NCBI GenBank assembly: GCA_963800555.1
Contig: CAWDBH010000005.1
Coordinates: 12,313 to 76,312, forward strand
From: an uncultured Candidatus Micrarchaeota archaeon
GTDB lineage: Archaea; Micrarchaeota; Micrarchaeia; Anstonellales; Bilamarchaeaceae
DNA length: 64,000 nucleotides
Reading direction: 5' to 3'
Part shown: in pieces, positions 3,891-64,000 of the stretch
Numbering within the stretch: position 1 is the first letter of the stretch
Layout of the letters: each line of letters starts with the position of its first letter
The notes under the pieces: generated by a model
What the model was told of the DNA's origin: nothing
The model's input: only the letters and a program-made list of their open reading frames with translations
Database searches by the model: none
Position numbers and translations under genes: made by a program

Positions 3891-3894
3891 ATCC

Positions 3895-5022
3895 TCACCT
3901 GATGATCCCGAGATCCACGAAGCAATCCTTCAGGATGCAGACCGCATTGCACCGGCTGAGCGTCTTCAACGGGCCGATATTCTCGAGCGTCTCCCAGAGA
4001 TTGTCCGGAGTCACATCGGAGAGCGGTGTCCTCGACCCTTCGAATGCCGAAGAAGCGAGATACGGGCAGAAATAGACCCGCTCATCCGGACCGATCACCA
4101 CCCCGTAATCCCTCGCGGCGGTGCACTCGCTGATCGCCGGAAGCCGATTGTACCAGTTGTTCCTCAGCTTGACTACGAAATCAGGGCGAAACTCCTTGAA
4201 GGAGATGTCACCGGCCAGCAGTGTTTCCAATGCCTGGGCCAGATCAGAACTGTTCCCATCGTCCAACTTCGGGACCCCGGGATGAAGGTAAAACGGGAAT
4301 TGGAGACGCAGGAGAGAGACGCCGCGGAGCGAATTCAGGTATTCGATAGTCCATATCAGATCATGGGGGATGTGGCCCGCATCCAATGACAGATCGGAGA
4401 TTATCCAGTCCACATTGATCTGCATGGAGGACCCTTTCCTGGATTTCATTTCAGCCGCTTCCTCGAGTTTCCCCATGAGCAATCCGAGGTTCCCGGTTTC
4501 CCGGCAACCATGCACCCGGCGATATACTTCACCCAGGCGGGGATCGGCCCCGAGGGGAGAATCGATGCTGAGATTCAGCCAGTCGTTCGGGGTATTATCC
4601 GAGGTCAGGAGATCGATGTCCTCGCTCTTGAGCAGGATGCCGCTCGTGGACAGCCCTGCGGCGATCCCCCGCTCTTTCGCCTTATGGATCAATGAACGCG
4701 TCACTTCCGGATTCAATGTCGGCTCCCCGGTCATGCCGGAGATGATCACCCTCCACATCCCGATGGTGGGGTCTGCCCGGTCGTCATAGGCGGAAAAGAC
4801 CCGATCGACCAGGCCGGCAGACATCTCTGGAGGCTCGCTCCCCCAGCTTTTCCGAAACGGCAGCCCCTGGCAGTGCGGGCATGCGAAATTACACTTGGAA
4901 GACGGATGGAATTCGAGCGTGATCGAGCGCCTGAACTTATTGTCGCTGTACGACCAAGGCTGGGTCTTTCCTAGGATGGTGATGTCTTCCCCCACGGCTT
5001 TGAATGAGCGTTGTATAGTCAT
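3895..5022 (-). CDS. radical SAM protein
   Basis: Cluster motif CNFACPHC and SAM-binding-like ISGMTGEPTLNPE, with C-terminal extra cysteines (FCPY..CNAVCILKDC). I prefer the ATG at 5022 (MTIQRSF) because TATA-like boxes lie 25-65 nt upstream. The track start at 5109 remains possible. Confidence 0.7.
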   Translation of the reverse strand: MTIQRSFKAVGEDITILGKTQPWSYSDNKFRRSITLEFHPSSKCNFACPHCQGLPFRKSWGSEPPEMSAGLVDRVFSAYDDRADPTIGMWRVIISGMTGEPTLNPEVTRSLIHKAKERGIAAGLSTSGILLKSEDIDLLTSDNTPNDWLNLSIDSPLGADPRLGEVYRRVHGCRETGNLGLLMGKLEEAAEMKSRKGSSMQINVDWIISDLSLDAGHIPHDLIWTIEYLNSLRGVSLLRLQFPFYLHPGVPKLDDGNSSDLAQALETLLAGDISFKEFRPDFVVKLRNNWYNRLPAISECTAARDYGVVIGPDERVYFCPYLASSAFEGSRTPLSDVTPDNLWETLENIGPLKTLSRCNAVCILKDCFVDLGIIR

Positions 5023-5116
5023 GAAGATGCGACCCTGACGGCATATCCTATGTGATGGACTCTTTAAAAAGACACAAGCTAACACTTTATATGACCGGTT
5101 AGGCCGCATGCGTGGA

Positions 5117-5863
5117 TTATTTCATCGGCCTGGAAGCAGACCACAGATGCTCGAAATATTTCGTGAATGAATCGCGGACGAACTTATCCGCTATCACGGT
5201 TGCGACAGGCGGATCGCTATAGACCATGATGGCTACTTTATCCGAGTATATCAGTATCTCGGTTATCATGTCCGCGGCTGAAGGAAGGAGACGGAGCTCC
5301 GTGTATCTCGGACTGGCGAGAGGTATGGACATCCGGAAATCGCTGTTCAGCAGCAGCTTTTCCTTGACCCTGGTCTTCTTGACCTGCATGATGAAACTTT
5401 CCCAGAACTCGGCGCCGAGTATCTCCACGGATGCGTTCGAGACGCCCATGCCGAGGTAAGAGCCGGAACCCAACACCTCCCGCAAAAGACCCTTGAACGC
5501 TTTCCTGCCGCTGTATATCATGGCCGACTGCTTCTGCTTCGATTTCGCGAGCTCGGCGGATATCTCCGGCATGATGGAACGCGCGATGCTTCTCCTCCCC
5601 TCAAGCTCGACGGATTCGCGCTCGAGCATGCTGTTTATGGATTCTGGCGGGGCGACCGCGAACTTGCGCTTCCCGCCTTCGTTGATGTATGTGACAAGAC
5701 CCCGCTCTGAGAGTTTGTCCAGGTTATCGTATATTATATTGCGGTGGAAGCCAGTTATCTTCACCAGCTCGCTGGCTATGGAAGGGCCGTTCTTAAGGAG
5801 CGCCAGGAGGACCTTGGCCTCGTTCCTGTTGAGGCCGATCCGTTCCAGGTCGGATGAGTGCAT
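5117..5863 (-). CDS. TrmB-family HTH transcriptional regulator
   Basis: N-terminal LERIGLNRNEAKVLLALLKNGPSIASELVKITGFHRNIIYDNLDKLSERGLV is a typical TrmB winged helix. The gene is 248 aa and is divergent from the ThyA-like gene. Confidence 0.8.
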   Translation of the reverse strand: MHSSDLERIGLNRNEAKVLLALLKNGPSIASELVKITGFHRNIIYDNLDKLSERGLVTYINEGGKRKFAVAPPESINSMLERESVELEGRRSIARSIMPEISAELAKSKQKQSAMIYSGRKAFKGLLREVLGSGSYLGMGVSNASVEILGAEFWESFIMQVKKTRVKEKLLLNSDFRMSIPLASPRYTELRLLPSAADMITEILIYSDKVAIMVYSDPPVATVIADKFVRDSFTKYFEHLWSASRPMK

Positions 5864-9973: not shown

Positions 9974-11544
9974 TTCTTGCTCGCCTTCCATCTCTTATAA
10001 CCGAAATACGCTACCACTATCACGACCAGCGCTATGCCGATCTCCAGATAGCTGAAGCCGAAGAGATCTCCGGGCCTGCCCCTCGTTGTGGTTCCGGTGG
10101 TTGTCGCTCCATTCGCCCCGTTCAGCCTCGCCGCGTCCATGGGCGAATAGACGGTTATGGGAATCTCCTTGCTCAGATTGTACTGGATGTTGTTCGCATC
10201 CTTGAATTCCACCCTTATCGGCAGGTTGTATTGCCCGGGTGTGAGGTTCTGGGGGACGTTGACCGTCACCTGGAATGTAGCGAAGTCATCCACGTTCAGG
10301 GTCCCGATGAACTGGTCGGTAGCTCCGATTACAGGCATGACAGTCTCCGGCTCCGTGGTGATATATACGCTCCTTATGGCGCTATTTCCCGTGTTCGATA
10401 TCTGGGCGATCACCTTCGCCCCGCTTGTACCGCCGGAGATGAATGATGGTTGTGTCGTCGCAGTCACGATCACGTCCGGAGTGGCTGTCACCGCGATGCC
10501 GATGTCCTCCACATAGCTCCCTCCATTCACCATGATCGACATGGGCAGGTTGTAATATCCCGAGGCTATGCTGGATCCCACACCCAAGGTCACTATCTTG
10601 GTCTCGTTCTGCCCCGGAGGTATGCTGTCGAAATAGATGAGCGTGGAGCCTATCGGTGTGAACTGGCTGGTCTGGTTGATGTCCACTATCGGGGAAGCGC
10701 CGCTGCCTCCGAGATTCTCGAGCGTAAGCGCGAACTGCGCCTCGGAACCGACCTCCACAGGGTTCAGGGATTGCATCGTAACGGCGAACTGGCCCGAAGA
10801 CGCGGACACCGTCACTGGACCCACGTATATTGTCTGATTCACGACGTTCGATAGCTCGTCCTGGTAGCTTACTATGAGCGGTATGGTGGATTTGCCGCTC
10901 GGTGTCAAAGATGAACTAGATAGTACCACCGAGACATTGGTGCTGCCTCCGGATGGCACCGCGCCCACGACCTGCTGCGTGACGCCTTGGATCAGGAATG
11001 TGGAAGTATCCGGGGTCGTTATGGTCACATCGTTCATGACACCTCCGGTGTTCTCGATCACAAGCTGCACCGTCACCGGATCCCCGGCCTGTATGGAAAG
11101 GGGGTCAACGGAAAGGGTTTTGACACTGAGTATCTGGTGCTGTGATATCTGTATCGGGATTGATATCGGACTGTTCTTGATGGCTGTCTTGGATGCATCG
11201 CTGAAATAGACCACGTTGATATCGATATTGAAGAATCCGCTGCTCACATTGGCAGGCACGGTGAACGGGATCGTGGTGGTTGCTGTGGCTCCGGTTCCGA
11301 CATCACCCAAGGCGATTTGGGAATACTGGCTCTCCAACGGAGTCTTGTATTCGACAACCGCCCCGGCCGCCGTATCAGTCCCGGAATTCGTGAGGCTGAT
11401 CTCGAGCTGCGCGACAGTGCCAGGATAGATTGTTCCTGGAAGCGTGGTGTGCCCAGTCAGCTGCAATGCAGCGTTGTTGGTGCAAAAGCCAACAGAGCAC
11501 ATGAGCGCCAAAATCAATATTCCGAACCAAACATTCAACTTCAT
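9970..11544 (-). CDS. secreted repetitive beta-sandwich surface protein with C-terminal TM anchor (COG1361/CARDB-like)
   Basis: It has a signal peptide (MKLNVWFGILILALMCSVGFC), repeated units of about 100 aa rich in T/S/V/N, and a C-terminal hydrophobic helix plus basic tail (IGIALVVIVVAYFGYKRWKASKK). It sits between the ABC ATPase and permease genes. Confidence 0.6.
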   Translation of the reverse strand: MKLNVWFGILILALMCSVGFCTNNAALQLTGHTTLPGTIYPGTVAQLEISLTNSGTDTAAGAVVEYKTPLESQYSQIALGDVGTGATATTTIPFTVPANVSSGFFNIDINVVYFSDASKTAIKNSPISIPIQISQHQILSVKTLSVDPLSIQAGDPVTVQLVIENTGGVMNDVTITTPDTSTFLIQGVTQQVVGAVPSGGSTNVSVVLSSSSLTPSGKSTIPLIVSYQDELSNVVNQTIYVGPVTVSASSGQFAVTMQSLNPVEVGSEAQFALTLENLGGSGASPIVDINQTSQFTPIGSTLIYFDSIPPGQNETKIVTLGVGSSIASGYYNLPMSIMVNGGSYVEDIGIAVTATPDVIVTATTQPSFISGGTSGAKVIAQISNTGNSAIRSVYITTEPETVMPVIGATDQFIGTLNVDDFATFQVTVNVPQNLTPGQYNLPIRVEFKDANNIQYNLSKEIPITVYSPMDAARLNGANGATTTGTTTRGRPGDLFGFSYLEIGIALVVIVVAYFGYKRWKASKK

Positions 11545-12410: not shown

Positions 12411-12722
12411 ATGGCTTATGAATTAGATCTTGTTCTTCCGATTTTGCGCGTGGTCGCTGCCGTGAGCGTCGCCGCCGCGGTCGTAGTCGCGTATAAACTA
12501 TACTCCGAGACGGACCGGGGCTGGTACTGGCTCTCCCTCCTGCTCTCGGCGTTCTTCATGGCCCTGTCGCAATGGATCGTAATCATCTTCCCGCTGCTGA
12601 GAAGCGCCGAGGCGCTGGGCATATTGCGCGACACAAGCGAGATCGTGGCCACGTTCCTTTTCGCATTATCATGCTATGGCATATATAAGACCATGAAAGA
12701 CATCCGAAAGAGGGTCGAATGA
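12411..12722 (+). CDS. small integral membrane protein
   Basis: About 103 aa with three hydrophobic helices. The ATG at 12411 is preceded by GGTGA. Confidence 0.5.
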   Translation: MAYELDLVLPILRVVAAVSVAAAVVVAYKLYSETDRGWYWLSLLLSAFFMALSQWIVIIFPLLRSAEALGILRDTSEIVATFLFALSCYGIYKTMKDIRKRVE

Positions 12723-15472: not shown

Positions 15473-16195
15473 CTATCCCTGCTGCTTATTTTTCATAGGT
15501 GCGCCAAGAGGCACTGGATCGATGACGGGTTTTTTGAATTTCAAATCCTTTAGGAAGGTTGCGTAATCCGATTTCATGCCTGTTTCCGGGAGGATCAAGC
15601 CGCTGAAAGCTGAGATGTCCTTGCTGAAGGAAAGCTCCGCGGGAGGTTTGAAGACACCGCGATCAAATCCAATACGCTGCAGGCCGCCCTTCACATCCAC
15701 CTGATCTCCTTTCCCGTGAACCTGCAAAACAGGGGTCGCTTGTTTAAGCAGCATCATTATTCCAGGAAGATTCCGTTCTATCTCGGCCATCACTTCTCTC
15801 CCTTCAGAAGATTCGTTCATAAGACCTATCGCTCCAACCGGCATGGGCAACTTAAATTCCATTGAGAACATGGTGCCGACCTCGACCGCACCAGCGTTTA
15901 CGAAATCCTCGATGCAATGAGCATTTTGGATGCATCCCTGCAATTTCGCGGAGTCTATGACATCGATGTAGACGTTGATTCCGAATTCGGGGTCTGCTGG
16001 CATGAAACCGCGCCTGAAAATCGCGCTAAGAACGAATGAGTATTCTGGTTGGGGCTCATCATCGGTTTTTGCTTCTGATTGAAGCTTTCTTATTTGAGCG
16101 AGTTTCTCTGTAACCGCTACCTTAGGCAAATATCCGGCGAGAGTAACTGTGATCACACCGGCATCTGTCCTTTTCACGGATAATATCGGGCCCAT
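15473..16195 (-). CDS. hypothetical protein (possibly the C-terminal part of a gene split by an in-frame TAG)
   Basis: 240-aa ORF with no recognisable SD upstream of its ATG. The frame is open upstream to the TAG at 16313-16315. Confidence 0.45.
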   Translation of the reverse strand: MGPILSVKRTDAGVITVTLAGYLPKVAVTEKLAQIRKLQSEAKTDDEPQPEYSFVLSAIFRRGFMPADPEFGINVYIDVIDSAKLQGCIQNAHCIEDFVNAGAVEVGTMFSMEFKLPMPVGAIGLMNESSEGREVMAEIERNLPGIMMLLKQATPVLQVHGKGDQVDVKGGLQRIGFDRGVFKPPAELSFSKDISAFSGLILPETGMKSDYATFLKDLKFKKPVIDPVPLGAPMKNKQQG

Positions 16196-16312
16196 GTCTT
16201 TTTTCAGCTCGCTGCCATCAATCGAATGGAGACTGTTGCTTTCTTTCCCTACCAGCCCGGGGTTCAGACTGCCGTACCATGGGGTCGCATCAATCTGGAT
16301 TGTCCTGCCATC

Positions 16313-16627
16313 CTACGGATTAGTGATCTCGACCCAGTTCTGAAACCTTTCGTCCTGCATCACTATCCTTGGTTTCAGCTCAGGGTTATGAGCTAGTATA
16401 TCAGAGTACATCCTTTCTGCGATGACTCTGCAATCCACATATTTTGTTTCATCGAACATCAAATGAAGCGACCCGTCAAACATCGCAGAAGCTCCGGCGT
16501 ATAAACTGATGCCATTGCATAAAACAGGCCCAAGTCCGACTAAGTGGTCTGGTGTTTTATGCTTATCGAGATAGAATTGGGCCAAGGATTCTGCTGAGTC
16601 GCTTGCCATACTTATATTATGCCCCAA
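16313..16627 (-). CDS. hypothetical protein (possibly the N-terminal part of the same gene)
   Basis: 104-aa ORF in the same frame as 15473..16195. A TATA-like TTTAAAAAG lies upstream. Confidence 0.45.
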   Translation of the reverse strand: MGHNISMASDSAESLAQFYLDKHKTPDHLVGLGPVLCNGISLYAGASAMFDGSLHLMFDETKYVDCRVIAERMYSDILAHNPELKPRIVMQDERFQNWVEITNP

Positions 16628-16742
16628 AGGCTTTTTAAATGTTAATTTTAGTGGTTAATCATGCCAATTACTCATTGATTGAGATACACAAACTCATACC
16701 AAGAAGGAGCAGCATTTTAGCTCTAATCTGATTATCCAATAC

Positions 16743-22543: not shown

Positions 22544-23557
22544 TCATAGCATTTCCCCTCTGGGCGTATCAGTGCTGCCCTTCAACGCATCTCTTTCTAC
22601 GTTGAATCGAGAGATGCCTTCATGATACAGATGCGCTATATTGAAACCTGCATTTGCATCAGCATTCTCAACCACTCCACAACTTGTGCAGTGGAACTCT
22701 TTTGCTTTCCTACTGTTGCTATCTATATGACCGCATCTGCTACATCTCTGCGACGTATACTGCGGTTCGACATAGGCAACAGGCACTCCATACTTTTTGG
22801 ACTTGTATTCTATCATGCTTTGCAACTGATAGAAACTCCAAGAGTTTAGGGAATACCTCTGCTTCTTTCTCGTTTTAGCTGTCCTTCTTATGTTTTTCAA
22901 TCCTTCAAGGACTATGATAGCCTTGTTGCTCTGTGCTTCCACAACAAGCCTCTTGCTTATCTGATGATTGATGTTCCTGACGATTCTGCTTTCTCTATTC
23001 TTGATTTTCTTTACGAGAGCATATTTGCTTTTCTTCTGCAAGTCTTTCCTGATGCTCTTGTATTTCGCATGGATGTGGTTGCATTCCTTTCCGAGCTTCA
23101 GCACTTTCCCTGTGTTGATATTAGATGCGACCAAGACATGACCAGTCGTGTTCCTATCAACGCCGATTACCTGCGCAGGAGCGTAGCAAGGCTGTTCTTT
23201 GTATGAGCAGGAGATATAAGCATAGGTATCATCAAGCTCTATCTGATTTATCTTCTCAAAGGAGGCAGGGAAGGTTATCGACAGAATCAGCTTCAGGCAT
23301 GGTAGATGAATCTCCTTTCCTACAATCTTTATGCCTTGATTCGGTATCGCCAGATTCACAGACTTGACTGCCTTTGCTCGTCTGTTTCTCGCATACTTTC
23401 TGAGGATTTGGTTTGCTATCATGGATTTCAAACCGATGTGCTTCACGTCCTTGCTGGATATTTTCCTTTCTGAGATAGCAAAGTCGGCAACCTTCTTGGC
23501 AAGACTGAGTTCATGGCTGAAATCCCTGCCGTGTTTGACTTTGTATGTCAGTATCAT
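22544..23557 (-). CDS. tnpB: TnpB (OrfB) RNA-guided-nuclease family protein, compact 337 aa
   Basis: C-terminal Zn-ribbon/RuvC-III region YTSQRCSRCGHID...FHCTSCGVVENADANAGFNI. Confidence 0.85.
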   Translation of the reverse strand: MILTYKVKHGRDFSHELSLAKKVADFAISERKISSKDVKHIGLKSMIANQILRKYARNRRAKAVKSVNLAIPNQGIKIVGKEIHLPCLKLILSITFPASFEKINQIELDDTYAYISCSYKEQPCYAPAQVIGVDRNTTGHVLVASNINTGKVLKLGKECNHIHAKYKSIRKDLQKKSKYALVKKIKNRESRIVRNINHQISKRLVVEAQSNKAIIVLEGLKNIRRTAKTRKKQRYSLNSWSFYQLQSMIEYKSKKYGVPVAYVEPQYTSQRCSRCGHIDSNSRKAKEFHCTSCGVVENADANAGFNIAHLYHEGISRFNVERDALKGSTDTPRGEML

Positions 23558-23964
23558 ATCTTATCCCACTGTCGTTCTATGTATTTCTGGATTGCTGCCG
23601 AAGAGACGTTGCCAGCAGTTGAAAGGAAATATGAACGTGTCCATAACGTCGGCATCTTCATAAGCATTGGAAACTCCCTGCGTAGATACCTTGAGCTTCT
23701 GCCCTTGAATCTCTTGACGACTATCTCAGGTCTGGTTCTCACATCTGCATAGACGAATAAATGAACGTGGTCTGGCATGATTTCCTTTGCTATTATCTTC
23801 CATTGATTCTCCTGCGCTACCTCATCACATAGCTCTGATAGACGATTCTTGATGTCGCCTACCAATAACTTTCTCCTGTATTTTGGGCAGAACACAAGAT
23901 GATAGTTTATCATGACGACAGACGTTGTATTGTGTTTATACTCCATAGATAGATTATACTCCAT
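23554..23964 (-). CDS. tnpA: IS200-type Y1 (HUH) transposase TnpA
   Basis: YHLVFCPKYRRKLL and PDHVHLFV (HUH motif), with a C-terminal Tyr-containing helix. The gene is 136 aa. Confidence 0.85.
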   Translation of the reverse strand: MEYNLSMEYKHNTTSVVMINYHLVFCPKYRRKLLVGDIKNRLSELCDEVAQENQWKIIAKEIMPDHVHLFVYADVRTRPEIVVKRFKGRSSRYLRREFPMLMKMPTLWTRSYFLSTAGNVSSAAIQKYIERQWDKI

Positions 23965-29812: not shown

Positions 29813-30075
29813 ATGGGCTAGAGTGGGGCCAGGGGTCCCAGCACCGCGCATCCCCTTTAAGCGGCTCGAATGCCCGGGGCGTTCTGCAGTGCATGCATGC
29901 CCTTCGTTTCAAGCGTTGACGCCCTGCCTTATGTGGCGGCGCGATGCGTGAATCTGGTCAGGCCGAAAGGAGCAGCCATAAACGTTTTGAGCCGTGCTTG
30001 TGAGATACAGGGTCGAGTGTAGATGCGAAGGCTCCTTGCATGTATTGCAGTGCAAACCGGGAAGCCCACCCATGA
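29813..30075 (+). ncRNA. signal recognition particle (7S/SRP) RNA, ends approximate
   Basis: The domain IV motif GGUCAGGCC-GAAA-GGAGCAGCC at 29956..29977 has a GNRA tetraloop and the AGCA/CAGG loop pattern of the SRP54 site. A long interrupted helix-5-like pairing joins four segment pairs: 29873-77/30057-61, 29885-93/30046-54, 29894-900/30038-44 and 29901-06/30026-31. Alu-like 5' hairpins are GGGGCCAGGGGUCCC and CCGC..GCGG. TATA-like CTTAAAAAG lies about 27 nt upstream. Confidence 0.65.
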
Positions 30076-52785: not shown

Positions 52786-55700
52786 CTAGGGCTTTCCGAA
52801 TCTACGCTTGGGCCTGCGTATAATGATCGTCACCCCGCCGATTATGACTATGACGATGAGCACTGTGAACGTGCCTTCCACCACCTGCATGATCGTGAGC
52901 GTCGGCGGGGTCTGCTGCAGGGGGGATGCCCCTGGCATGGAGTGTATCTCCACCGTCTTCACCACGGTGCCGTTTCTCAGATACGCGACGGTATAGGTGC
53001 CGATCATATCAAGAGGCACTGAGAAGTCGCCCGATGCATCCGTCTTTCCTGTTAGCGTCTTCCCGCTCGGATCGGTTATCTTGAGGTCGCAGCCCGCGCA
53101 GGTCGTGTTGTCTTCCAGCGCCTGCACGCTCGCGTTGTTTCCTACGAAACCGGAGTCCGGACCCTTGAGATCGAAGCTCTTGCATGCGTTGTCCATGCAG
53201 ATCTGGCCAAGGCCGCAGGATGGGCAACCCGGACCTGAGCCGCATTGGTACGGGGTCAGGACATGGTTGGCCACCGCGCCGCAACCCGTGATAGCCTCGC
53301 AGCTGCCTTGTTGCGCTCCTGCTGCTCTGCTGCATGATTGGTCTCCGGCGCAGTCAGAATCAGAGGCGCACTCGTGCGTGTTCTGGGGAGTCGGTGATTG
53401 GCAAACATGGTCCTTGCATGACTCTCCTGATGCACAGTCGCTGTCCAAGCAGCACGCGTAGGGGACGCATGCGTGACCCTGCACATAGCCGCAGCTGCAT
53501 ATGATGGGAACGCAGCTCTGGTTTACGCATCGCTGGTCCTGATTACACATGGAATCTTCGGTGCACTGTGGCGTAATCGCTGGGCAGAGGTCGAGCTCGA
53601 ACGGGTCGGTAGAAGCTGAGAGGTAGTCCGAGCTGCCCGGGGTATAGAGCTCATAGCTGTCGTTGTTTGTAACGGTGAAAATCGCGTCACCGGAAGAGTC
53701 CGTCTGGGCCTGCTGCGATCCTGAGGCGGATACGGGTATGAGGCTGATCGTCAGTCCGGGAACTCCCGAGGAGACAGTGAGCTGCCCGCTGGAGCAGTTG
53801 AAAGATTCCGATAGCCTCACTGGAGACTTGGTGGTCTGGTGGCCAGTATCTGGGTTCACCGTTATTGCCGGACCCACGAAGGGGTGCCAGTCCGCTCCGT
53901 TGCCGGTCCATTCGCCGCCGTATAGGGAAGCGTTGAAAGGCAGGTCGCTTCCGGTGTCAGCCCAGCTATCGTCATTGGTGTCTGATATGTTGTAGACTTG
54001 CCAGGATGGTGTGCCGTCGGAGTCATAGTATATGTTGCCTGAGGTCGAGTCGTTGTAGGCATTGCCACCCGCTTCGTCATCGACCCAGTAATCGCTCGTG
54101 ATGTTGTTGTGCAGGAACATGTTCCCTACGGATCCGTCAGCCAGATAGATGGACGTGCCAGAGGTGTTCATGATATTGCCGAAGACCAGCGTACTGGTGG
54201 AACCCGAAACCAGTTGGATGCCTTGATCGTCGCTAATTATGACGTTGTTGGAGATAGTGCTCTGGAATTCGCTCTCACTGTCGTCTTCGGTTTTCATGGC
54301 GCCATGAGAGGCGGCCTGCGCGTACTCTGCGTAGTTCTCACCTCCCAAGTATATCCCCGTCCCCGTGCCTTCATTGCTCGCGTTTATGATGTTGCCGCTT
54401 ATCAGCGTGCCGACGGAAGAATCCGAAGAGATGCCGGTTCCGACTCCCGTGATGTAGTTGTCGAGCAATTGCGTGTCGGTTTCGGACTGCAGCATCAGGC
54501 CGATTGAGAAGGGATACCCCCCGATTATCGTATTATTGAATACCGTGTTGTTGAACGAGTAGGGCAAATCGACCGAAGTCGTGTTGGACGCCGGTTCGGC
54601 GTAATCCCTGGTGTTCCATTCCGCCATGTAATCCTGGTGGGCAGAATCATCCGGATAGCTCTCGTTGGCAGGATACGGGTATGCACTCATGCCGTGGAAC
54701 GGCAAGGGGTCTACGGAGTCGCGGATGAACCCGTTTATGCTGGACTTGATGCTGTACATGTCATCGGCCAGCAGGAAGACGTACCTGTCCGTGCCATCGA
54801 TCTTCGGAGCATCGTTGAACTGGAGATGCAGCTCGTCGCCGCTGCGCATGACCACGAATTGGTCGTCGCTGGAGCTCAGCAGCGGAAGCACATCGCCGTA
54901 CTTGGTGAAGTTGCCGTACATCAGGTCGTTCGGTATGGCCGGGCCATGGTCATCGGTGACGTTGGTGTTCCGGTGGTCTACGGTCGGGTAGTCGTAGCTC
55001 GTGGAGCCTCCCCATTGCAATGTCGCATCGCTCGGATCCACGTAGGTGACCGTGTAATTCACCGGAGGCGAGTCGTCGAGCAACACCTGGTCGACCATGT
55101 TTATGGTGGTGGGCGCGGAAGGCGCGATGATCCTCATCAAGGTATCGTTCGCCTCAAGGATGCCTGATAGGTTGTATACGATCGTCCTGGAATCCCCGAT
55201 GAAACCTCCGAACGCCTTGCGGGTGACCCAGGTCCCGTTCGCATTCTTGGTTTGCACCAGCAGGTAATGCTGCGGGGTGAGTTTCGGGTATGCCGAGTAC
55301 TCGCCCCAGCCTGTGACTATCAGCTTCGCGTACTGCGGGTTCTCTATCGAACCGAAGTCCAGCGTTATCGGATTCTGCATTCTGTTGTATACCGGAACAG
55401 GCACGCCGTCCTTTGCAGATACCTGCGGCAGGACATCGTTGCCGTAATTGTCCGTGGCGCTTATCGGCGCCATCGGATCATGTATCGTCATGAAATCCTC
55501 GTCTGGAACCTGGTTGAACGCATAGGTCCAGCTCCACTGGTTCAGCACGCCATAACCCTGCGGGACATCCACGAGGACCAGCTTCGCCTGGTCGAAATAG
55601 TCAGACTCGGGGATTACTTCCCTGACTTTCATATCGTAGACTCCGTCCGTGGGGGTGAAATTGCCGAGCTCGTAGATCCCTGCCTGGTATTTCTGAGGGT

Positions 55701-57846
55701 TGAATACCGAAAGCCCCAGCATCTCGCCCGCCAAATCCGTGTAATAGCTGTAATCCGATCCGTTCTTGAGATAGAGGAACGGGCAGGAGCCGTAGGTCGT
55801 GTACTGCCCGCTCATGTAATTGTACCCGATCTGGTTGTCGTCCGCGTAGTAGAGGTAGATGCCTTCGTTGTTGTTTGATATATTGTTGTACATGACCCAG
55901 TTGCTATCCGAATCCTGGTCCAGATAGACCCCGAAGGCGCTGTTGTCATGGATATGATCTTCCGAGATATTGACTCCGGTGGCCGCGTACAAGTATATCC
56001 CGTAGCCGGAGGGACCCTCTCCAGTTTGGGCGAACCCCAGGTCGTCGTTGACTATCGCTCCGCCTGACATCTCGTCCAGGTAGATGTCGTCGTAGAAGTC
56101 CGAGATGCTGCAGTTCTCCACATTCGTGTTGACCTGTTCCGAGTAGACGCCGTATGTGCCCGAGTCCTCGCCGTTGATTATCTGGCTCCCGTTGCAGTCT
56201 ATCGTGACGTTCGGCTCTATGACCGTGAGCGCGGTGACTCCGCTGAACGGATAGCTGTCGTTGCACAGGACTATCGAGCCGCTGACCATGAAGCCGGATC
56301 CCATGCTCCCGGTGACATTGCCTTGGTAGGTGGATGGGTCCGAAAGGTTGACGCATCCGGAATAAGCGGGTATTGGTAATGAGACATTATTATCATCTAA
56401 CGTAACCGCACCATTTTGTGCCAACAACCTGCCGCCTACATTTGCGCCAGTGGTGGCAGCGATAGATGCGGCGGCCAGGATATTACCGCTGAAATTGGTG
56501 CCTGTCCCGAGTGTCGCGGAACTGCCGAGTTGCCAAAAGACATTGCTGGCATTGGCACCGTTTACGAGGACCACTTTGCTAGATGATGCCGTGGTTAGCG
56601 TGGAGCCGATTTGAAATATGAAAACTGAATCAGGATCGCCCTCGCCGTTGAGCGTCAGTGTTCCGGTCAATCCGGCCGATGAACTAAAACAATAAACTCC
56701 CGGCGTGAGAGGACTGAGACTGCCTAGATCTTCACCAGTCAGCACGGTATTGCATGTTCGGCCTGTGATATTGTTGTAAGCCGTTGCCAGATCAACCTTG
56801 GATTCGTTCGAAACAGAATCATTCGAATGATCTGTCCCGATCAATGTCCCAGGAGGAAATCCGATTATCGTAGACGTCGGATAGGATCCGATATCTCCTA
56901 TGACAATAGAGTTACCGGTGTTTGTAATCCCCGAATAGGCTAGAATCGCAAAATTGCTCGCTGCTCCTAGATCCACGGGTGTAGCGTATATATATGGAAC
57001 GAGCGGAGCGTAATCTATCACCCCCGCTGAGACCATACCGAGTGAATGAGCGTTGTTATACGGGTAGCCGTTGCCGTTGTTCCCGACGAACAATCCGGAT
57101 CCATAGCCGGATGGGATGGAGGGGTTGCTTGTGATGCTAACTGAATAGTTTATCACGTTGCCCCAGATGTTGCCCTCTTCGATGCCATATGACGAACCGT
57201 TCCAGATATTGCTGCCATTCACGTCATTCACGTACTGGGTCGCCGGGCCCGTGAAGTTGTCCCAGTAGAATACGTTGCCTCCAGAGGCGGAGTCTATGGA
57301 GACCAGAGGCCCCCCCGCGCTCGATGATTCGAAGGTCGTGTTTACGATCGTATTGTTGCTGGAGATATAGAACACGAGATTATCTCCGGGTGCGATCACG
57401 GTGGAGTTGGCTATCGTGTTGTTGGAGCTTTGGTAGAGTAATATCGTGTCCGCTGCCACGGTCGCGCTCGCGGTTATGTTCTTTATCGTCCCGTTGGTAT
57501 TGCTTGTGAAAAATATCGCCCTCGCGAAATGAGAGAGATTGCAGTTTTCGATGACCGTATTGTTCTGGTCCGAGTAGACGGCATAAGTAGTACCGGAACC
57601 GACTATCGAAGAGCCTTTGCAATCTATCGTGACGTTGGGTTCTGTGACCTGGAGCGCCATAACATTGCCGAATGTATAGGTCCCGTAGCATAAGATGATC
57701 GAGCCGTTGATGCTGAAACCGGTCGTGACGTTATCGCCTGAGACGATACCTTGGTAGGTGGACGAGTCGGAAAGATTCACGCATGAGTAGGCGAACCCGA
57801 GATTGGCTAAAACCAGCATCAGAACAGCAAGATAGTAGATTCTCAT
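52786..57846 (-). CDS. giant surface protein B (1686 aa): signal peptide, three right-handed beta-helix (PbH1/NosD-like) blocks, DUF3494 ice-binding-like domain, unknown ~390-aa insert, Cys-knot modules, C-terminal TM anchor
   Basis: The internal Met at 57846 starts a signal peptide (MRIYYLAVLMLVLANLGFAYS) and has a TATA box about 24 nt upstream. Repeated NNxIxxN beta-helix turns are present. The C-terminus is LIVIVIIGGVTIIIRRPKRRFGKP. N-x-S/T sequons are very dense. Confidence 0.75.
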   Translation of the reverse strand: MRIYYLAVLMLVLANLGFAYSCVNLSDSSTYQGIVSGDNVTTGFSINGSIILCYGTYTFGNVMALQVTEPNVTIDCKGSSIVGSGTTYAVYSDQNNTVIENCNLSHFARAIFFTSNTNGTIKNITASATVAADTILLYQSSNNTIANSTVIAPGDNLVFYISSNNTIVNTTFESSSAGGPLVSIDSASGGNVFYWDNFTGPATQYVNDVNGSNIWNGSSYGIEEGNIWGNVINYSVSITSNPSIPSGYGSGLFVGNNGNGYPYNNAHSLGMVSAGVIDYAPLVPYIYATPVDLGAASNFAILAYSGITNTGNSIVIGDIGSYPTSTIIGFPPGTLIGTDHSNDSVSNESKVDLATAYNNITGRTCNTVLTGEDLGSLSPLTPGVYCFSSSAGLTGTLTLNGEGDPDSVFIFQIGSTLTTASSSKVVLVNGANASNVFWQLGSSATLGTGTNFSGNILAAASIAATTGANVGGRLLAQNGAVTLDDNNVSLPIPAYSGCVNLSDPSTYQGNVTGSMGSGFMVSGSIVLCNDSYPFSGVTALTVIEPNVTIDCNGSQIINGEDSGTYGVYSEQVNTNVENCSISDFYDDIYLDEMSGGAIVNDDLGFAQTGEGPSGYGIYLYAATGVNISEDHIHDNSAFGVYLDQDSDSNWVMYNNISNNNEGIYLYYADDNQIGYNYMSGQYTTYGSCPFLYLKNGSDYSYYTDLAGEMLGLSVFNPQKYQAGIYELGNFTPTDGVYDMKVREVIPESDYFDQAKLVLVDVPQGYGVLNQWSWTYAFNQVPDEDFMTIHDPMAPISATDNYGNDVLPQVSAKDGVPVPVYNRMQNPITLDFGSIENPQYAKLIVTGWGEYSAYPKLTPQHYLLVQTKNANGTWVTRKAFGGFIGDSRTIVYNLSGILEANDTLMRIIAPSAPTTINMVDQVLLDDSPPVNYTVTYVDPSDATLQWGGSTSYDYPTVDHRNTNVTDDHGPAIPNDLMYGNFTKYGDVLPLLSSSDDQFVVMRSGDELHLQFNDAPKIDGTDRYVFLLADDMYSIKSSINGFIRDSVDPLPFHGMSAYPYPANESYPDDSAHQDYMAEWNTRDYAEPASNTTSVDLPYSFNNTVFNNTIIGGYPFSIGLMLQSETDTQLLDNYITGVGTGISSDSSVGTLISGNIINASNEGTGTGIYLGGENYAEYAQAASHGAMKTEDDSESEFQSTISNNVIISDDQGIQLVSGSTSTLVFGNIMNTSGTSIYLADGSVGNMFLHNNITSDYWVDDEAGGNAYNDSTSGNIYYDSDGTPSWQVYNISDTNDDSWADTGSDLPFNASLYGGEWTGNGADWHPFVGPAITVNPDTGHQTTKSPVRLSESFNCSSGQLTVSSGVPGLTISLIPVSASGSQQAQTDSSGDAIFTVTNNDSYELYTPGSSDYLSASTDPFELDLCPAITPQCTEDSMCNQDQRCVNQSCVPIICSCGYVQGHACVPYACCLDSDCASGESCKDHVCQSPTPQNTHECASDSDCAGDQSCSRAAGAQQGSCEAITGCGAVANHVLTPYQCGSGPGCPSCGLGQICMDNACKSFDLKGPDSGFVGNNASVQALEDNTTCAGCDLKITDPSGKTLTGKTDASGDFSVPLDMIGTYTVAYLRNGTVVKTVEIHSMPGASPLQQTPPTLTIMQVVEGTFTVLIVIVIIGGVTIIIRRPKRRFGKP
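53400..53870 (-). repeat. C-terminal module (beta-sandwich plus Cys-knot) duplicated between proteins B and A, copy 1
   Basis: TGHQTTKSPVRLSESFNCSSGQLTVSSGVPGL..QTDSSGDAIFTV..CTEDSMCNQDQRCVNQSCVPIICSCG..CVPYACCLDSDCASGESCKDHVC. DNA similarity to 58343..58840 is visible by eye. Confidence 0.7.
56385..56975 (-). other. DUF3494 / type-1 ice-binding-protein-like domain inside protein B
   Basis: LGAASNFAILAYSGITNTG..VIGDIGSYPTSTIIGFPPG..LATAYNN..LTPGVYCFSSSAGLTGTLTLNG..FIFQIGSTLTTASSSKVVLVNGANASNVFWQLGSSATLGTGTNFSGNILAAASIAATTGANVGGRLLAQNGAVTL. This is collinear with my memory of fungal and bacterial IBP sequences such as TisAFP. Confidence 0.75.
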
Positions 57847-57861
57847 GAATGGATTACTTAT

Positions 57862-57878
57862 GCATTTATTTATAAGCG
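57862..57878 (-). promoter_or_regulatory. TATA box (CTTATAAATAAATG) for protein B, leaderless geometry
   Basis: It is centred about 24 nt upstream of the ATG at 57846, in the 107-nt gap after protein A's out-of-frame stop. Confidence 0.5.
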
Positions 57879-57953
57879 TTTTTCTAAGAAAAAAATCGCC
57901 TTTTGACGCGGCCTGATTAAGGCTCGCGCTGCATGATCGATAAAAAAAGGAAA

Positions 57954-60900
57954 TCACCTGGGTTTGGGCGGCTTCCTGCTGATCAGATAGTAGCCCACTC
58001 CTGCGACGACCACGATTATGACAATCCAGAGCAGCCAGGTCCAGCTGAAGGGCTGCGAGCTCGACAGTGACAGTCTGGCTGGGATTCGATGCCGGGGCCG
58101 CTGCGGCGTTCGCGGATTGCTTGGCCTGGTCCGCCATCTGGACCGCGAGCGCGAAGTTGCCTGAGGATAGGGCAGCCTGCGCCTGCGCCAGTTCGGATTG
58201 AGCGGCTGAGACATCCTTACCCGAGGAGCTGGCTGAATCTATCGCTGCGGTCGCAGCGGCTATCGCGGCGGATGCGTCAGCCTGGGTCGGACCTGTGGTG
58301 ACATTAGCCGGGGGGGTCTGGTTCTGGGTGATCTGCTGAGCCACGCACGAGTGGTCCTGGCAGGATTGCCCGGATGCGCAGTCGCTGTCGTAGCAGCAGG
58401 CATATGGGACGCATGCGTGGTTCTCTATCTGGCCGCAGCTGCATTCTATCGGAGCGCAGCTCTGGTCCACGCACTGCTGGCCCTGGTCGCACATTGAATC
58501 TTCGGTGCACTGGGGTGTTTGGGTTATCGGGGTCTGGTTCTGTGGCTGGACCACAGGAACAGGGCAGAGGTCCAGCTCTGCATTGGCCGTCGCTGAGAGG
58601 TAGTCCGAAGTGCCTTGGGAATAGAGCTCATAACTGCCGCTTGAAGCCACTGTGAACACGGCTTCGCCTGAGGAATCGGTCTGCGCCTGCTGGGAGCCGG
58701 CATTGGCTAATGGGATCAATGATACCATCAGGCCAGGTACTCCAGAGGAAACCGTCAATTGCCCGCTTGAGCAGTTGAATGATTCCGAGAGTTGCACTGA
58801 TGATTTGGAGGTCGAGTGGCCGGTCTCCGGATTTGGTGGGGAGTATGCTTCGATCGTCACATCCCAAGGTGCCGAAGTGCTGTTCACGTTATTATCCGAG
58901 AGGAGGACCGCATCCGCTTCCAAGCCATATGTGCCTGGATTGCCGGCAGCATTGAGCTGGAAGACCACCATCTGCGATTCGCCATCCCCCACTGTGATCT
59001 GCTGCGGGTTGCTGTCTGCATAGAATGGAGTCCCTGAACCTACCGGGACCAAGCCGACACGGGCAACCCATCCGACCGCGTTCTTGAGGAGGGCGGTCAT
59101 GTTGGTGTCCCAGCCGGAACTGCTGTTCCAGCATCCAGAGATGTATCCTGGCGCCATCCCGAATTGCACCACTTTCCCGGTGCCCGTGTCGTTGACCACC
59201 ACGATCGGCGTACCATCGGTGGTGTCCTGCACTATGGCGGTCGCGCTACCGGTCGGGCTGAGGGTGCTGTATCCGCATGTCGGAGCTATCCATGAATCCG
59301 GGAGGCCGCTGGTGACCGGGCTCGACCCGAGCAACGAGTAGTTCACGGCCTTAGTATATCCTTCTATCCGATTCGCAATAGTGAAATTGTAGTCGTTGAA
59401 AGCGCTCCACTCGAATATGATGAGCCCGCCGCCGTTCGCGACGTAACCGTTGAGGGCATCCTGTCCCGCCTCGGGCATAACGCTGAGGTAGGAACTTTCA
59501 TCCAGCACTATCACGGCCGCATACGGACTGAGATCAAGGCTCCCGTCATAATCCGGCGTCTGCATCCCGCATGTGACCGAATACCCTGCGGATTCGAGGA
59601 TGGGTTGTATGTCGTCCGCGCATTCAGTGTCTCCGCCTTGCAGCACGTATATGTTTCTGTTGCCGCCGGAACCCTTCAGGCTGACGTTCATCGGTCCGCA
59701 TTCCGGCCCTGCGCACGAGACGTTCAAATCCACGGAGAACGATTCATTCTGGATGACGCTTCCGACCGGGTTTTGGACTGATAGAGTGATCCCCGTGTTT
59801 CCGCCGCTGGTTGTGGCAGGATGCCAGTCGGCCCCGTTACCGGACCAGTATCCATCGATGCCTACTTGCGTCGATGAGTTGAAAGGCAGGTCGCTTCCGG
59901 AGTCGGCCCAACTTGAGTTGGTACTGCTCGTGATGTTGTAGACATCCCATGCTCCTGTGCCGTTCGCGAGGTAGTAGATGTTCCCGGTGGTCGAGTCGTT
60001 GTAAGCATTGCCAGTCCCATCGTCCGTGACCCAATAGGAGCCTTGGATTGTATTGCCGAGGAAGGTATCGTAGTCGGAGTCAATAAGATATATGGCATCT
60101 TCAGTGTTATTCTCGAAAGTGTTGCCCTGGACCCAGTCAAAGCTATTGGCATATAGCTGGATTCCGTACAGCGCGTTCCGGTCTATGTGGTTCCCGCTTA
60201 TGTTCAGGTTCTGGCAGCTATAGGCGTTTATGCCGCTGCCAGTCCCGTCGGTTATATTGTTGTTTATTATTGTCAGGTTGCTCGCGTCTAGGCAGTCTAT
60301 CTGCTGCACGCCTCCGCAGTTATGGACCAGGTTGTTCGATTGGATGGTGTTGTAATCGCCCAGCACATCGAATGCGCCGCCCGTGTCGTTATGCATGTAG
60401 ATGCCGGTGGCAGTGTTGTTCGAAGAAACATTATCGTACCAGATGCCTCCGCCGAATTGTATCCAGTCCCAGTTAGCGGCGTAGTAGTCGTTCGCTTCGC
60501 CGATCTCGCCTCCGGAGATCAGGTTCTGCTGGGAATCCACGAATCCGATGCCGCTCGCGAAGGTGTATGTGATGGTGTTGTTGGTGAAATTCGAATCTGT
60601 CACCCTATTCGCGCTTATGCCCTCGCCGCAGGTCTTATCCGAACAATAAGGGCCGCTGCACCCGCATGAGTCCGGTCCGCCGCTCACGTTGTAGATGACG
60701 TTATCGCTGATCACGGAGCTGTTGATTATCATGATCTGCATGGCGTTTATCGTGCTGTCGTATATCTGGTTGCCCGAGATGATGTCGTATTGGTAAACGG
60801 CCCCGAACATGATGCCGACGTTGTTGTCGTACATCAGGTTGTCCGTGGCATGCACCCACCCCGGCGCGCCGTAGCCGAGTATGGCCGCGGATGATGAGTT

Positions 60901-63900
60901 AGATATCGTGTTGCCCTCTATCGTTATATTGTTCTGGCTAGCCATGCTTATGCCGTCTTCGAAGTTTGAGATCGAGCAATTCTCGATAGTCGCCCAGTCT
61001 GCCTGGACATTCACACCGTTGCCGGTCCCGGGGTTGCTGTCGTTTATCGAGCTGCCCGCGCAGTCTATTGTGACATTGGGTTCCGTGACGCTGAGCGCTG
61101 TGACCCCGGGGAAGACATAGCTGCCGGGACACATGGTAATCGAGCCGGTGACGCTCAAGCCGCTGCTCATGTTCCCTGAGACGTTGGCTCCGTAGGTGAA
61201 CGAGTCGGAGAGGTTGACGCATGTGGATAATGTGTTCAATGTGTACGGGTGCCAATCAGCTCCGTTGCCGCTCCATTGGTCTCCCGAAAGGGAAGAGCTG
61301 AAAGGCAGGTCGCTGCCGGCATCCGCCCAGCCTGAGCCGGTGCTGCTCGTTATATTGTATACTTCCCATGCTCCGGTGCCGTTTCCGAGATAGTAGACGT
61401 TCCCGGTGGTCGAGTCGTTGTATACGTTGCCCGAACCGAGATCATCCACCCACGAATCGCCTTGTATTATATTACCCAGGAAGGTGTTCGTATGCGAGCC
61501 GGACTTCACGTAAAGCGCATACCGGCTATCGGAGGTTATGCTGTTGTTAGTGAAATGCGTTCCCGCTAGAGCCGCTGAGCCTCGCGCCATACCAGTAGTG
61601 CGACGTGATGTTGTTGCCTTCGATGATGTTGCCGTTAGCATTGCTGGCGAAGAATATCCCGCCGCATTCGGTATACGGGCAGGAGTCTACGCTATTAGCA
61701 TCCACGGTGTTGTTTGCGATCAGGTCATAGGAAGCGCCTGAATTCAGCGTTATCCCGACGCCGCTGGTGGAGTTGACATTGTTGTTGGTGATGTTGTTGT
61801 CATTGCTGTTGTCATTGCCCGCGCCGACCCTTATGCCATGCCCGTTTATGGACAGCACGGTATTGTTGTCGACGATATTGTCGGTGCTCGAACCTATGAA
61901 GATCGCGCCGCATATCTCGTAGCTGCAGTCATCACCCAAATAGGTTGCCGTATCGTTCTCGATCACGTTCTGGTTGGCGTAATTGTGGACGAGTATGCCG
62001 ACGCCTTCCTTCGAGGTGGCCTGAGAGCCGGTGACATCGCTGTCAGTCGTTCCGTACAGCTCTATAGCGGATTCGGATGAAGAGTTCGCGTTGGAATCGG
62101 ACACAATGGCTCCGGTAACGGAATCCAGATAAATCGCATCCGAACTCGCGTTCACCGCGTCATTCTGGATGGCTGCGTAATCGCCGCCAGATTCGATGTC
62201 TATGCCGGTATCGAAGCCGCTTACGTTGCAGCTCTCGATGGTCGTGTTGGGCTGATTGGAATAGACGCTCGTGTTGGAATCGCTGGTGGATACCAACGAG
62301 CTGCCCGCGCAGTCGACCGCCACGTCCGGTTGGGTGACCGTGAGAGCGCTGACCCCTGAGAATCCATAGGTCGCGGGGCAAAGCACGATGGAGCCATTGA
62401 CCGTGAAGCCTGAACCCATGCTGCCTTGCACCTTGTTCTGGTAGGTTGAATTGTCGGTGAGGTCGACGCAGCTGTTCGGGGTGTAAGGATGATAATCCGC
62501 TCCAGCGTAGGGCCAATAGCCGTCGATGCCCGGCTGGGTCGTGGAACTGAAAGGCACGTCGCTGCCGACATCCGCCCATCCGTCGTGGTTGGTGTCCGCG
62601 ATATCGTAGACTTCCCAAGCCGGCGTGCCGTCCACGAGATAGTAGATGTTGCCGGATGTCGAATCGTTGTACGTATTGTCTCCGTAGTCATCGTAGACCC
62701 ACGCCAATCCCTGCATGGTGTTGCCGAGGAAAGTGTTGGATTCCGATTCGGCTGCAATTATCGCAGGCCCTTCCGTGGCGTTGAAGGTATTGCCGGAGAA
62801 ATCATTGTCGTAGCCCTCAATCATGTAGAGGCCTGCGGATTCCCCGATGCCGAATTGATCGATCGATGCCGCATCGACACCGGAGACGTTGTCCTGCGCG
62901 CTCCCGAAGAGGATGAGCGGGAATGTCGAGTTGAGATCGTCGTCGGATGCGGTGTTGTTGGAGTCGGAATAAAATAAGATGCCGGACACGATAGTGTTGA
63001 TGTCATCAGCCCTTATGGTGCCATACGAGCTGAAAGACGCGATCCCGCATGGAATCGAGAACTCATCCTCTCCGAACCCTGCGGCGTTCGTGCTCGAGAT
63101 GTTGTCCCAGCTCACCGTGGAGTCGTATGCGGTCTGGTTGAGCATGATGCCTGTGGAGAAATTCATGATATCGCAATCAGTTATCATGGTGCCGGGCTGA
63201 TCTGAGAGGACGCCCAGGTTTCTCGACCCGTTCTCCCCGATGATCTCCGCGCCGTTGCAGTCGATGATGACCCCCGGATTCGTGACCGCGAGCGCGATGA
63301 TATCGCCATCGAACGAATAGTTGTCCGTGCACAGGAGGATCGAGCTGTTGACCGAGAATCCGTCCGCCATGTCCCCCTGGACGTCGTTCTGGTATGTTGA
63401 TGGGTCGGTCAGGTTGACGCAGGATGCGGTATTCGTTGTGTATGGATGCCAGTCCTGCCCGCTGCCGATCCATTCGCCACCGGAGAGCGATGCGCTGAAG
63501 GGTAGATTGCTGCCGATATCCGCCCAGCCGTCTCCGTTGGCGTCCGCGATATCGTATTCCTCCCAGGAAGGTGTGCCGTCGGGTTCGTAATATATGTTGC
63601 CGCTGGTCGCGTCGCTGTAATAGTTGCCGCTGACCTCGTCATCCACCCAGGAGCCGCTCGTGATGTTGTTGCGGAGGATCGTGTTCCCTGCAGACCCGTC
63701 AGTCAGATAGATGGACGTGCCAGAGGTGTTCATGATATTGCCGAAGACCAGCGTGTTCGTGGAGCTGCCATCCAGCTGGATGCCGACATTATCGCTCAGG
63801 ATGCTGTTGTTCGAGATGACGCTGTCGGTCGGGTAGCCATCGTTCTCGCCATACAGGTCTATCCCCGTGCCGCTGTTGCCCGCAGTTATGTTATTGCCTA

Positions 63901-64000
63901 TTATCTGCGTGCTGACCGAATAATCTGAGTATATGCCGGTCTCTACGCTGGAGATGTTGTTGTAGAGTATGCTCGTGGAATTCTCATCCTGCAGATTGAT
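57954..64000 (-). CDS. giant surface protein A (more than 2000 aa, 5' end outside window): beta-helix blocks, repeated ~70-aa modules, alpha/beta insert, Cys-knot modules, TM anchor. It needs two frame corrections, so it is either a pseudogene or an assembly artefact.
   Basis: Three collinear ORF pieces lie in three frames: >64000..61547, 61641..about 58060, and 58214..57954. The repeat register continues across the 61.55-kb junction (..RLSGSSGN / HFTNNSITSD..). The last piece encodes a typical anchor, WLLWIVIIVVVAGVGYYLISRKPPKPR. The frame is open to the window end. Confidence 0.6.
58343..58840 (-). repeat. C-terminal module duplicated between proteins B and A, copy 2
   Basis: TGHSTSKSSVQLSESFNCSSGQLTVSSGVPGL..QTDSSGEAVFTV..CTEDSMCDQGQQCVDQSCAPIECSCG..CVPYACCYDSDCASGQSCQDHSC. 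Confidence 0.7.

Follow-up and report, generated by a model that had tools for sequence, protein, structure and literature searches.

A 2951-codon open reading frame in a Micrarchaeota assembly reads as a chimera of two tandem giant surface-protein genes

An open reading frame of 2951 codons, which runs on the minus strand from 61641 to 52786 of the 64,000-nt window (the whole stretch of DNA analysed here), is, judged by its sequence, a chimera of the back part of one surface-protein gene (gene A) and the whole of a separate paralog (gene B). The locus is best read as two tandem paralogous surface-protein genes, gene A (approximately 2900 aa, in three frame segments) and then gene B (1686 aa), because the C-termini, the intergenic spacers and one colinear gene of a genome of the same genus agree on this arrangement with the homology that spans one of the junctions. 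The chimeric frame would be the outcome of two single-base frame errors in gene A; after the second break, the wrong frame would stay open by chance through the tail of gene A, its terminator and the promoter of gene B into gene B itself. We consider both breaks to be consensus indel errors of the assembly, with a probability of roughly 0.7. The frame has been entered in a protein collection as a protein of 2934 aa, and this record is an annotation artefact. The main value of the case is a corrected annotation and not new biology.

Materials and Methods

The assembly under study (G000) comprises 1.46 Mb in 22 contigs, and the window corresponds to C5:12313-76312; positions without a contig name are window positions. 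The genome used for comparison (G004) belongs to the same genus and is recorded as 'MAG: uncultured Candidatus Micrarchaeota archaeon isolate MFD01689.bin.1.58'. The genes of the two genomes were compared over 428 kb of G004, whose surface-gene contig, CAWDQD010000013.1, carries three tandem genes (g1 to g3) at positions 29588-51517. Signal peptides and transmembrane (TM) helices were judged by Kyte-Doolittle (KD) hydropathy. Frame breaks were screened for by tblastn of the dominant ORFs of each genome against the other, over 256 orthologs and approximately 84,000 aligned aa, and every candidate was inspected. Most of the automatic candidates proved to be gene starts, ORFs on the opposite strand or in another frame, or extensions into intergenic DNA, and were set aside.

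The 2951-aa product had no exact match, a scan of metagenome contigs gave no relative, and a search of 5.8 billion proteins gave nothing beyond the 2934-aa protein of the window itself, one remote match and, at 60%, a paralog from G004. These collections therefore hold no second copy of the species.

Results

The first-pass annotation of this DNA had proposed that a methionine inside the long frame, at 57846, starts a signal peptide with a TATA box upstream, and both features are borne out. The protein opens with MRIYYLAVLMLVLANLGFA before the predicted cleavage point and YSCVNLSD after it, with a basic start, a 15-residue hydrophobic core (mean KD 2.15) and a small-x-small cleavage motif. The promoter and start, aaaaacgtttataaa-N24-ATGAGA, are common to five genes, namely A, B and the three genes of G004. 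Gene A itself begins beyond the window edge, at C5:78973 (window-equivalent 66661), where MRINYFVVLILVLANLGFA precedes the cleavage point and ISCVNLSNN follows it. When the two starts are placed ATG on ATG, window 66698-66585 (gene A) aligns with 57883-57770 at 79% identity, and the alignment takes in 37 nt upstream of Met 57846 in addition to the signal-peptide codons. Therefore, the block of promoter and signal peptide that precedes Met 57846 is a paralog of the one at which gene A truly starts. Overall, genes A and B have 2.5 kb in common at 74% identity. The TATA box lies at a distance from the ATG that is usual in archaea, which suggests a leaderless mRNA for gene B. Genes A and B would be transcribed separately, each from a BRE/TATA promoter approximately 26 nt before its ATG, and the mRNA would probably be leaderless.

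The end of gene A is found in a different frame from that of the long ORF. The +1 frame 58214..57954 ends in WLLWIVIIVVVAGVGYYLISRKPPKPR, or ...SSSQPFSWTWLLWIVIIVVVAGVGYYLISRKPPKPR, with a 19-residue window of KD 2.48 ahead of a basic tail, and its stop lies 107 nt before Met 57846. In the G004 paralogs, all three C-termini consist of ...AQAQAALSSGNYALA...ANAAAAP, 17-18 residues, W-x-W, a TM helix and a Lys/Arg tail, and in gene A a C-terminus of this type appears only on switching to the +1 frame for the final 32 codons. The TM anchor and basic tail that the first reading had placed at the end of this frame are thus homologous to the C-termini of g1 to g3. Moreover, the intergenic spacers of G004 have the same layout as the A-B spacer, that is, a stop, a T-run, GAAAAACGTTTATAAA, 24 nt and ATGAGAGTC. 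In the frame of the long ORF, the 68 codons linking the gene A region to gene B are without hydrophobic or conserved character. Because the off-frame stop frequency at the locus is only 0.013-0.040, this stop-free read-through is unremarkable, and the earlier view that it is open by chance stands.

The three G004 genes (2501, 2141 and 2600 aa) are intact and arranged in tandem at the same syntenic position, and the flanking genes reach 95% aa identity. The G004 paralogs have in common with the G000 genes the promoter, the signal peptide, the beta-helix and linker modules and the Cys-rich modules, and also the Ala-rich stalk, the TM helix and the basic tail. Among them, g3 is a single open frame that is colinear with gene A over both junctions, with order and content kept (Table 1). 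Gene B, by contrast with gene A, is in a single frame when compared with the G004 proteins. The proposal of two tandem paralogs with two frame corrections in gene A is therefore supported by an ortholog that needs only one frame.

At junction 2, a second frame that runs in from the window edge ends at 61547-61549 and overlaps the start of the 2951-aa ORF, at 61641, by 95 nt. As assembled, the sequence reads GCA-TTT-CAC-TAA, and GCA-TTC-ACT-AAC restores the expected ...SGSSGNA-FTNNSITS... (GNAFTNN). In a peptide of 149 residues whose two parts meet after residue 60, the local alignment with internal repeats of the two genes extends from residue 2 to residue 148 and so spans the junction. The overlap of the two ORFs in different frames at 61547-61641, with repeat homology continuing across it, had been seen in the first pass, which placed a break at about 61555, inside the interval derived here. 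At junction 1, the spacer between the conserved flanks measures 49 nt in gene A vs 17-18 codons in the three G004 proteins; the frame change, after which gene A had been taken to end at 57954, was expected at 58040-58080, and this range overlaps the derived one (58050-58092). Both junctions are mended by removing one base. Apart from these two breaks, gene A has no lesions, and there are no stops in its 1704 + 1169 + 32 codons. The first-pass annotation had also described gene A as longer than 2000 aa and 5'-truncated by the window; the truncation holds, and the size extends to approximately 2900 aa with the start at 66661.

At the junctions, single-base runs reach no more than T3, G3 and C3-C4. 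Such contexts (T3, C3/C4) are not long homopolymers, and this counts against consensus error.

Table 1. Features of the A-B locus, colinear segments of G004_g3 and frame breaks elsewhere in G000 (window positions unless a contig is named)
Feature	Position	Strand	Detail
Gene A fragment 1, in-window part	61547..64000	-	1704 codons from true start to premature TAA 61547-61549
Gene A fragment 2	58051..61557	-	1169 codons, first 40% of the 2951-aa ORF
Gene A fragment 3, +1 frame	57954..58049	-	FSWTWLLWIVIIVVVAGVGYYLISRKPPKPR, then stop; anchor, basic tail, true stop 57954-57956
Junction 2	61552..61558	-	one base too many for the expected frame, within GGGAACGCATTTCACTAA
Junction 1	58050..58092	-	one extra base (or two missing), between conserved ANAAAAP and (Q)PFSWTW
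Gene B	52786..57846	-	1686 aa; signal peptide, beta-helix repeats, ice-binding-like domain, TM anchor, then RRPKRRFGKP and stop
A-B intergenic spacer	57847..57953	-	107 nt
T-rich run	57942-57953	-	directly after gene A stop
BRE-like GAAAAACG	57877-57884	-	before TATA box
TATA box TTATAAAT	57868-57875	-	-29..-22, centred approximately 26 nt before gene B ATG
Re-framed gene A, predicted peptides			...SGSSGNAFTNNSITSDSR and ...PFSWTW
2951-aa ORF frame, predicted read-through peptides			LQLDLAALDCHNRGRRRSGLL...; LQLDLAALDCHNR
G004_g3 residues 334-1594 vs gene A	65866-62012		71%
G004_g3 residues 1735-2309 vs gene A, other frame	61548-59812		75%
G004_g3 residues 2317-2552 vs gene A	58842-58120		69%
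Break, geranylgeranyl-reductase-like gene	C5 ~86170		extra base, at VVVGADGAAG motif
Break, polyprenyl-synthase-like gene	C10 ~79210		missing base, at C7 run
Break, gene without assigned function	C9 ~23560		extra base; A5/G3/A4 context
Break, gene without assigned function	C22 ~12520		missing base, adjoining G4
Break, KaiC-like gene	C8 ~87280		GATC read as GATAC, at GIPGLDEILGGG
Break, another giant surface gene	C2 ~10143		GGATCC read as GGATACC

Each gene is predicted to interleave right-handed beta-helix modules with a conserved module of approximately 100 aa, and to have Cys-rich modules and many N-glycosylation sequons as well. In gene B and in fragments 2 and 1 of gene A, Beta_helix (PF13229) scores 63-105 bits (Pfam gathering cut-off 25.9) and NosD (PF05048) scores 86-89 bits (cut-off 23.6). 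As in right-handed parallel beta-helix and NosD-like proteins, several such repeat blocks, well over the Pfam thresholds, are present in both genes; unlike in NosD maturation proteins, the repeats would here serve to build up a giant surface protein with a membrane anchor. The NosD copper-maturation subfamily was rejected as an assignment (TIGR04247, 39 and 24 bits vs a cut-off of 300). Fragment 2 of gene A contains beta-helix repeats, a ThuA-like domain (a profile match below Pfam's cut-off), Cys-rich modules and an Ala-rich stalk. In gene B, residues 301-488 give a whole-model match of 200 bits to the ice-binding-like family PF11999/DUF3494, and the ice-binding equivalog NF045625 scores 108 bits vs a cut-off of 400; in contrast to ice-binding proteins, gene B has this domain as one among several of a surface protein, and an ice-binding function is not implied. 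A CarboxypepD_reg-like domain of gene B is a weak match, below Pfam's cut-off, and a region of approximately 480 aa in the same gene matches no Pfam family. The NCBIfam search of both genes added no family assignment.

The N-termini consist of MR, 15-17 hydrophobic residues and GFA, with the predicted cleavage before the next residue, and this pattern (KD 2.15-2.81) is kept in the five genes; a Sec-type signal peptide is predicted in both A and B. Gene A (in the +1 frame) and gene B (KD 2.72) each end in one TM helix and a basic tail, and neither gene has another window of TM grade. N-X-S/T sequons occur at 3.2-3.5 per 100 aa, approximately twice the expectation from composition. These features point to A and B as giant membrane-anchored proteins with a putative surface location; the two proteins are probably glycosylated, and a role in adhesion, in cell-cell or host contact, is plausible.

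Elsewhere in the assembly, six further single-base frame breaks were found in G000 where G004 is continuous (Table 1). In the reverse direction, where G004 would be broken and G000 continuous, no break was confirmed in the same 256-ortholog screen. Both halves of the geranylgeranyl-reductase-like gene (C5), the polyprenyl-synthase-like gene (C10) and the C9 gene have 74-91% identity to G004. The eight breaks in all comprise six extra and two missing bases, and several of them lie at homopolymers (C7, A5, G4). A genome-wide conversion of GATC into GATAC, the change at two of the eight breaks, was rejected; the frequencies of GATC and GATAC are the same in G000 and G004.

Discussion

We consider consensus error to be the best explanation of the two breaks in gene A because, across the assembly, single-base lesions hit conserved genes whose halves stay conserved. 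The catalogue to which G004 belongs is Nanopore-only with one round of Medaka polishing, a description that holds for G004 and not necessarily for G000 (PMC12313526), and its authors report Nanopore-associated errors, mostly in archaeal MAGs (PMC12313526). Split and chimeric ORFs that arise from residual indels in long-read-only MAGs likewise show single-base breaks in otherwise conserved genes. The G000 breaks differ from long-read indel artefacts in that six of eight are extra bases and two of eight are missing ones, with GATC read as GATAC in two cases. Alternatively, the breaks may be real and recent mutations, by which gene A would be newly inactivated or truncated in the strain or population and gene B would still be functional. 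Surface-protein genes do differ between the two relatives, with three paralogs in G004 and two in G000; the two breaks in gene A exceed the background rate (Poisson P of approximately 0.02 for two breaks in one 8.7-kb gene, as calculated for a pre-specified gene); and a third break sits in another giant surface gene, on C2. However, similar single-base breaks occur in conserved G000 genes, three of them with housekeeping-type motifs. Furthermore, ORFs of 1200 aa or more number 28 in G000 and account for 16-19% of the aligned length, so that three of eight breaks in giant genes do not constitute an enrichment. In addition, dN/dS between gene A and G004_g3 stays level across the break (0.22 on the 5' side of junction 2 and 0.24 on the 3' side, with 0.18 in the C-terminal module), and there are no additional stops in approximately 2900 codons. 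Real mutation is thus unlikely, although it deserves some weight. The suggestion that gene A is decaying receives no support from dN/dS; a decaying pseudogene was rejected in view of the absence of relaxed constraint and of lesions accumulating after junction 2, a result that a very recent inactivation would also give.

The first-pass annotation had offered mis-assembly in the repeats as its other explanation. In such a case, contig paths would have been joined out of register between diverged repeats or paralogs. Gene A is indeed internally repetitive and has a paralog adjoining it, but self-alignment gives a best internal repeat identity of only 83%, far from both junctions, and neither junction lies at a repeat boundary. 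Moreover, neither G000 nor G004 has a second copy of the 200 aa that precede junction 2, gene A is colinear with G004_g3 at both sites, and a collapse of repeats does not yield a one-base offset; we therefore regard such a joining error as very unlikely. Full-length protein A could also be obtained by programmed +1 frameshifting or by slipped-strand switching. Both breaks call for the same +1 shift, and at GCA-UUU-C a slip of tRNA-Phe from UUU to UUC would give exactly the expected GNAFTNN. However, the G004 ortholog stays in one frame at both sites, no adjacent stop, rare codon or stimulator was identified at the shift site, runs of only 3-4 bases are too short for contingency loci, and the other breaks of G000 are of both signs, so that recoding or phase variation merits very little credence. 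It is scarcely credible that the whole 2951-aa ORF belongs to one real gene, although the frame is uninterrupted and has been called as one protein: its middle 68 codons, in which no conserved or hydrophobic character is seen, run out of frame over the conserved anchor of gene A, a terminator-like T-run and a conserved promoter, and its N-terminus is the out-of-frame overlap with fragment 1 of gene A. There is a slim chance that the breaks are real and that the archaeon uses frameshift mutation or low-level +1 slippage to switch or shed the largest of its surface proteins. With real breaks, gene A would be made as a secreted, anchorless fragment of 1704 aa and only rarely at full length, and such switching or shedding would let the archaeon vary its surfaces for host contact.

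The chimeric record affects how the locus is described. Its domain list (beta-helix, ThuA-like, ice-binding-like and CarboxypepD_reg) mixes two genes, and the first 1704 residues of gene A stand in a separate ORF. G000 carries approximately one frame break per 40 kb, and other observations of a 'split gene', 'pseudogene' or 'fusion' in this assembly should be regarded as suspect.

Giant anchored surface proteins of a plausible host-contact type are already known from DPANN genomes, and the present locus is a clear example of tandem, rapidly reshuffled giant anchored beta-helix surface proteins in Micrarchaeota. The site holds three genes in G004, all intact, and two in G000. The G004 gene g3 holds the position of gene B and yet resembles gene A, which differs from g3 in having an N-terminal array of EGF-like repeats of approximately 36 aa and the ThuA-like insert.

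Frame breaks in conserved and surface-protein genes

A second giant surface-protein gene of the assembly under study (G000, GCA_963800555.1), located on contig C2, is broken like gene A, the upstream member of the tandem paralogous surface-protein genes A and B, and its counterpart on contig C20 of a genome of the same genus (G004, MFD01689.bin.1.58) runs uninterrupted in a single frame for at least 4027 aa. The final 87 residues of the split gene (YHRDRQHHRPVLQQKQ...) are out-of-frame read-through. On the contig of the window (C5), a geranylgeranyl-reductase-like gene is divided by one surplus base at GGAGGCTGAC, within the VVVGADGAAG motif. The G004 counterpart is a single ORF of 441 codons (stop-to-stop), and each half of the divided gene is ~85% identical to it.

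The frame breaks on C8 and C2 are alike in form, with GATC(C) read as GATAC(C). Because GATC and GATAC occur at normal frequencies overall, any error linked to the motif, possibly through methylation, is sporadic. Three further single-base frame breaks were found in conserved genes on C10, C9 and C22, and the G004 sequence is continuous at all three. Within the window, the three overlapping ORFs look like a further frame break.

Interrupted genes and ORFs in G000 and in the window
Feature	Location	Strand	Details
Geranylgeranyl-reductase-like gene, split	C5:~86165-86182 (window-equivalent ~73855-73870, beyond window)		Comparison with G004
Second giant surface-protein gene	C2:2-17003	-	ORFs of 2374 + 3390 aa
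Giant surface gene, frame break	C2:~10135-10150		GATC(C) to GATAC(C)
KaiC-like ATPase gene, frame break	C8:~87270-87290		GATC(C) to GATAC(C)
Polyprenyl-synthase-like gene, frame break	C10:~79200-79215		At C7 run
Conserved gene, frame break	C9:~23555-23570		A5/G3/A4 context
Conserved gene, frame break	C22:~12515-12560		Adjoins G4 run and GAGCTC site
Lone in-frame stop	Window 16313-16315	-	Between two same-frame ORFs
ORF, one side of stop	Window 16316-16654	-	113 aa
ORF, other side of stop	Window 15476-16312	-	279 aa
Three overlapping ORFs	Window 2539-5121	-	Differing frames: 3898-5121, 3363-3929, 2539-3825

Modules and turnover of the surface-gene locus

The surface-gene locus is rearranged among congeners, with three genes at G004 C13 (CAWDQD010000013.1):29588-51517 versus two in G000 at window 52786-66661. 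The third G004 paralog, G004_g3, holds the position of gene B but is most similar to gene A. This reshuffling suggests that the paralogs have undergone recombination or gene turnover. At its N-terminus, gene A has tandem EGF-like Cys-rich repeats with a unit of ~36 aa (CSGHGSCDSGSDTCSCDxGWxGDPSCSTATCSDLNS; window-equivalent 65906-66490, C5:78218-78802, beyond the window), whose copies share 73-83% DNA identity; G004_g3 lacks this array. Residues ~700-1180 of gene B (window 54300-55750, minus strand; YGSCPFLYLKNGSDYSYYTDLAGEML...), a stretch of ~480 aa flanked by beta-helix blocks, had no match in Pfam or NCBIfam; the stretch is common to gene A and G004_g3, within a 2.5-kb paralogous block.

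SRP RNA

The archaeon's SRP RNA at window 29813-30069 (plus strand) scored highest with the Rfam model Bacteria_large_SRP (71.9 bits). A different model from the clan to which Bacteria_large_SRP belongs gave an overlapping match with a lower score, which was suppressed.
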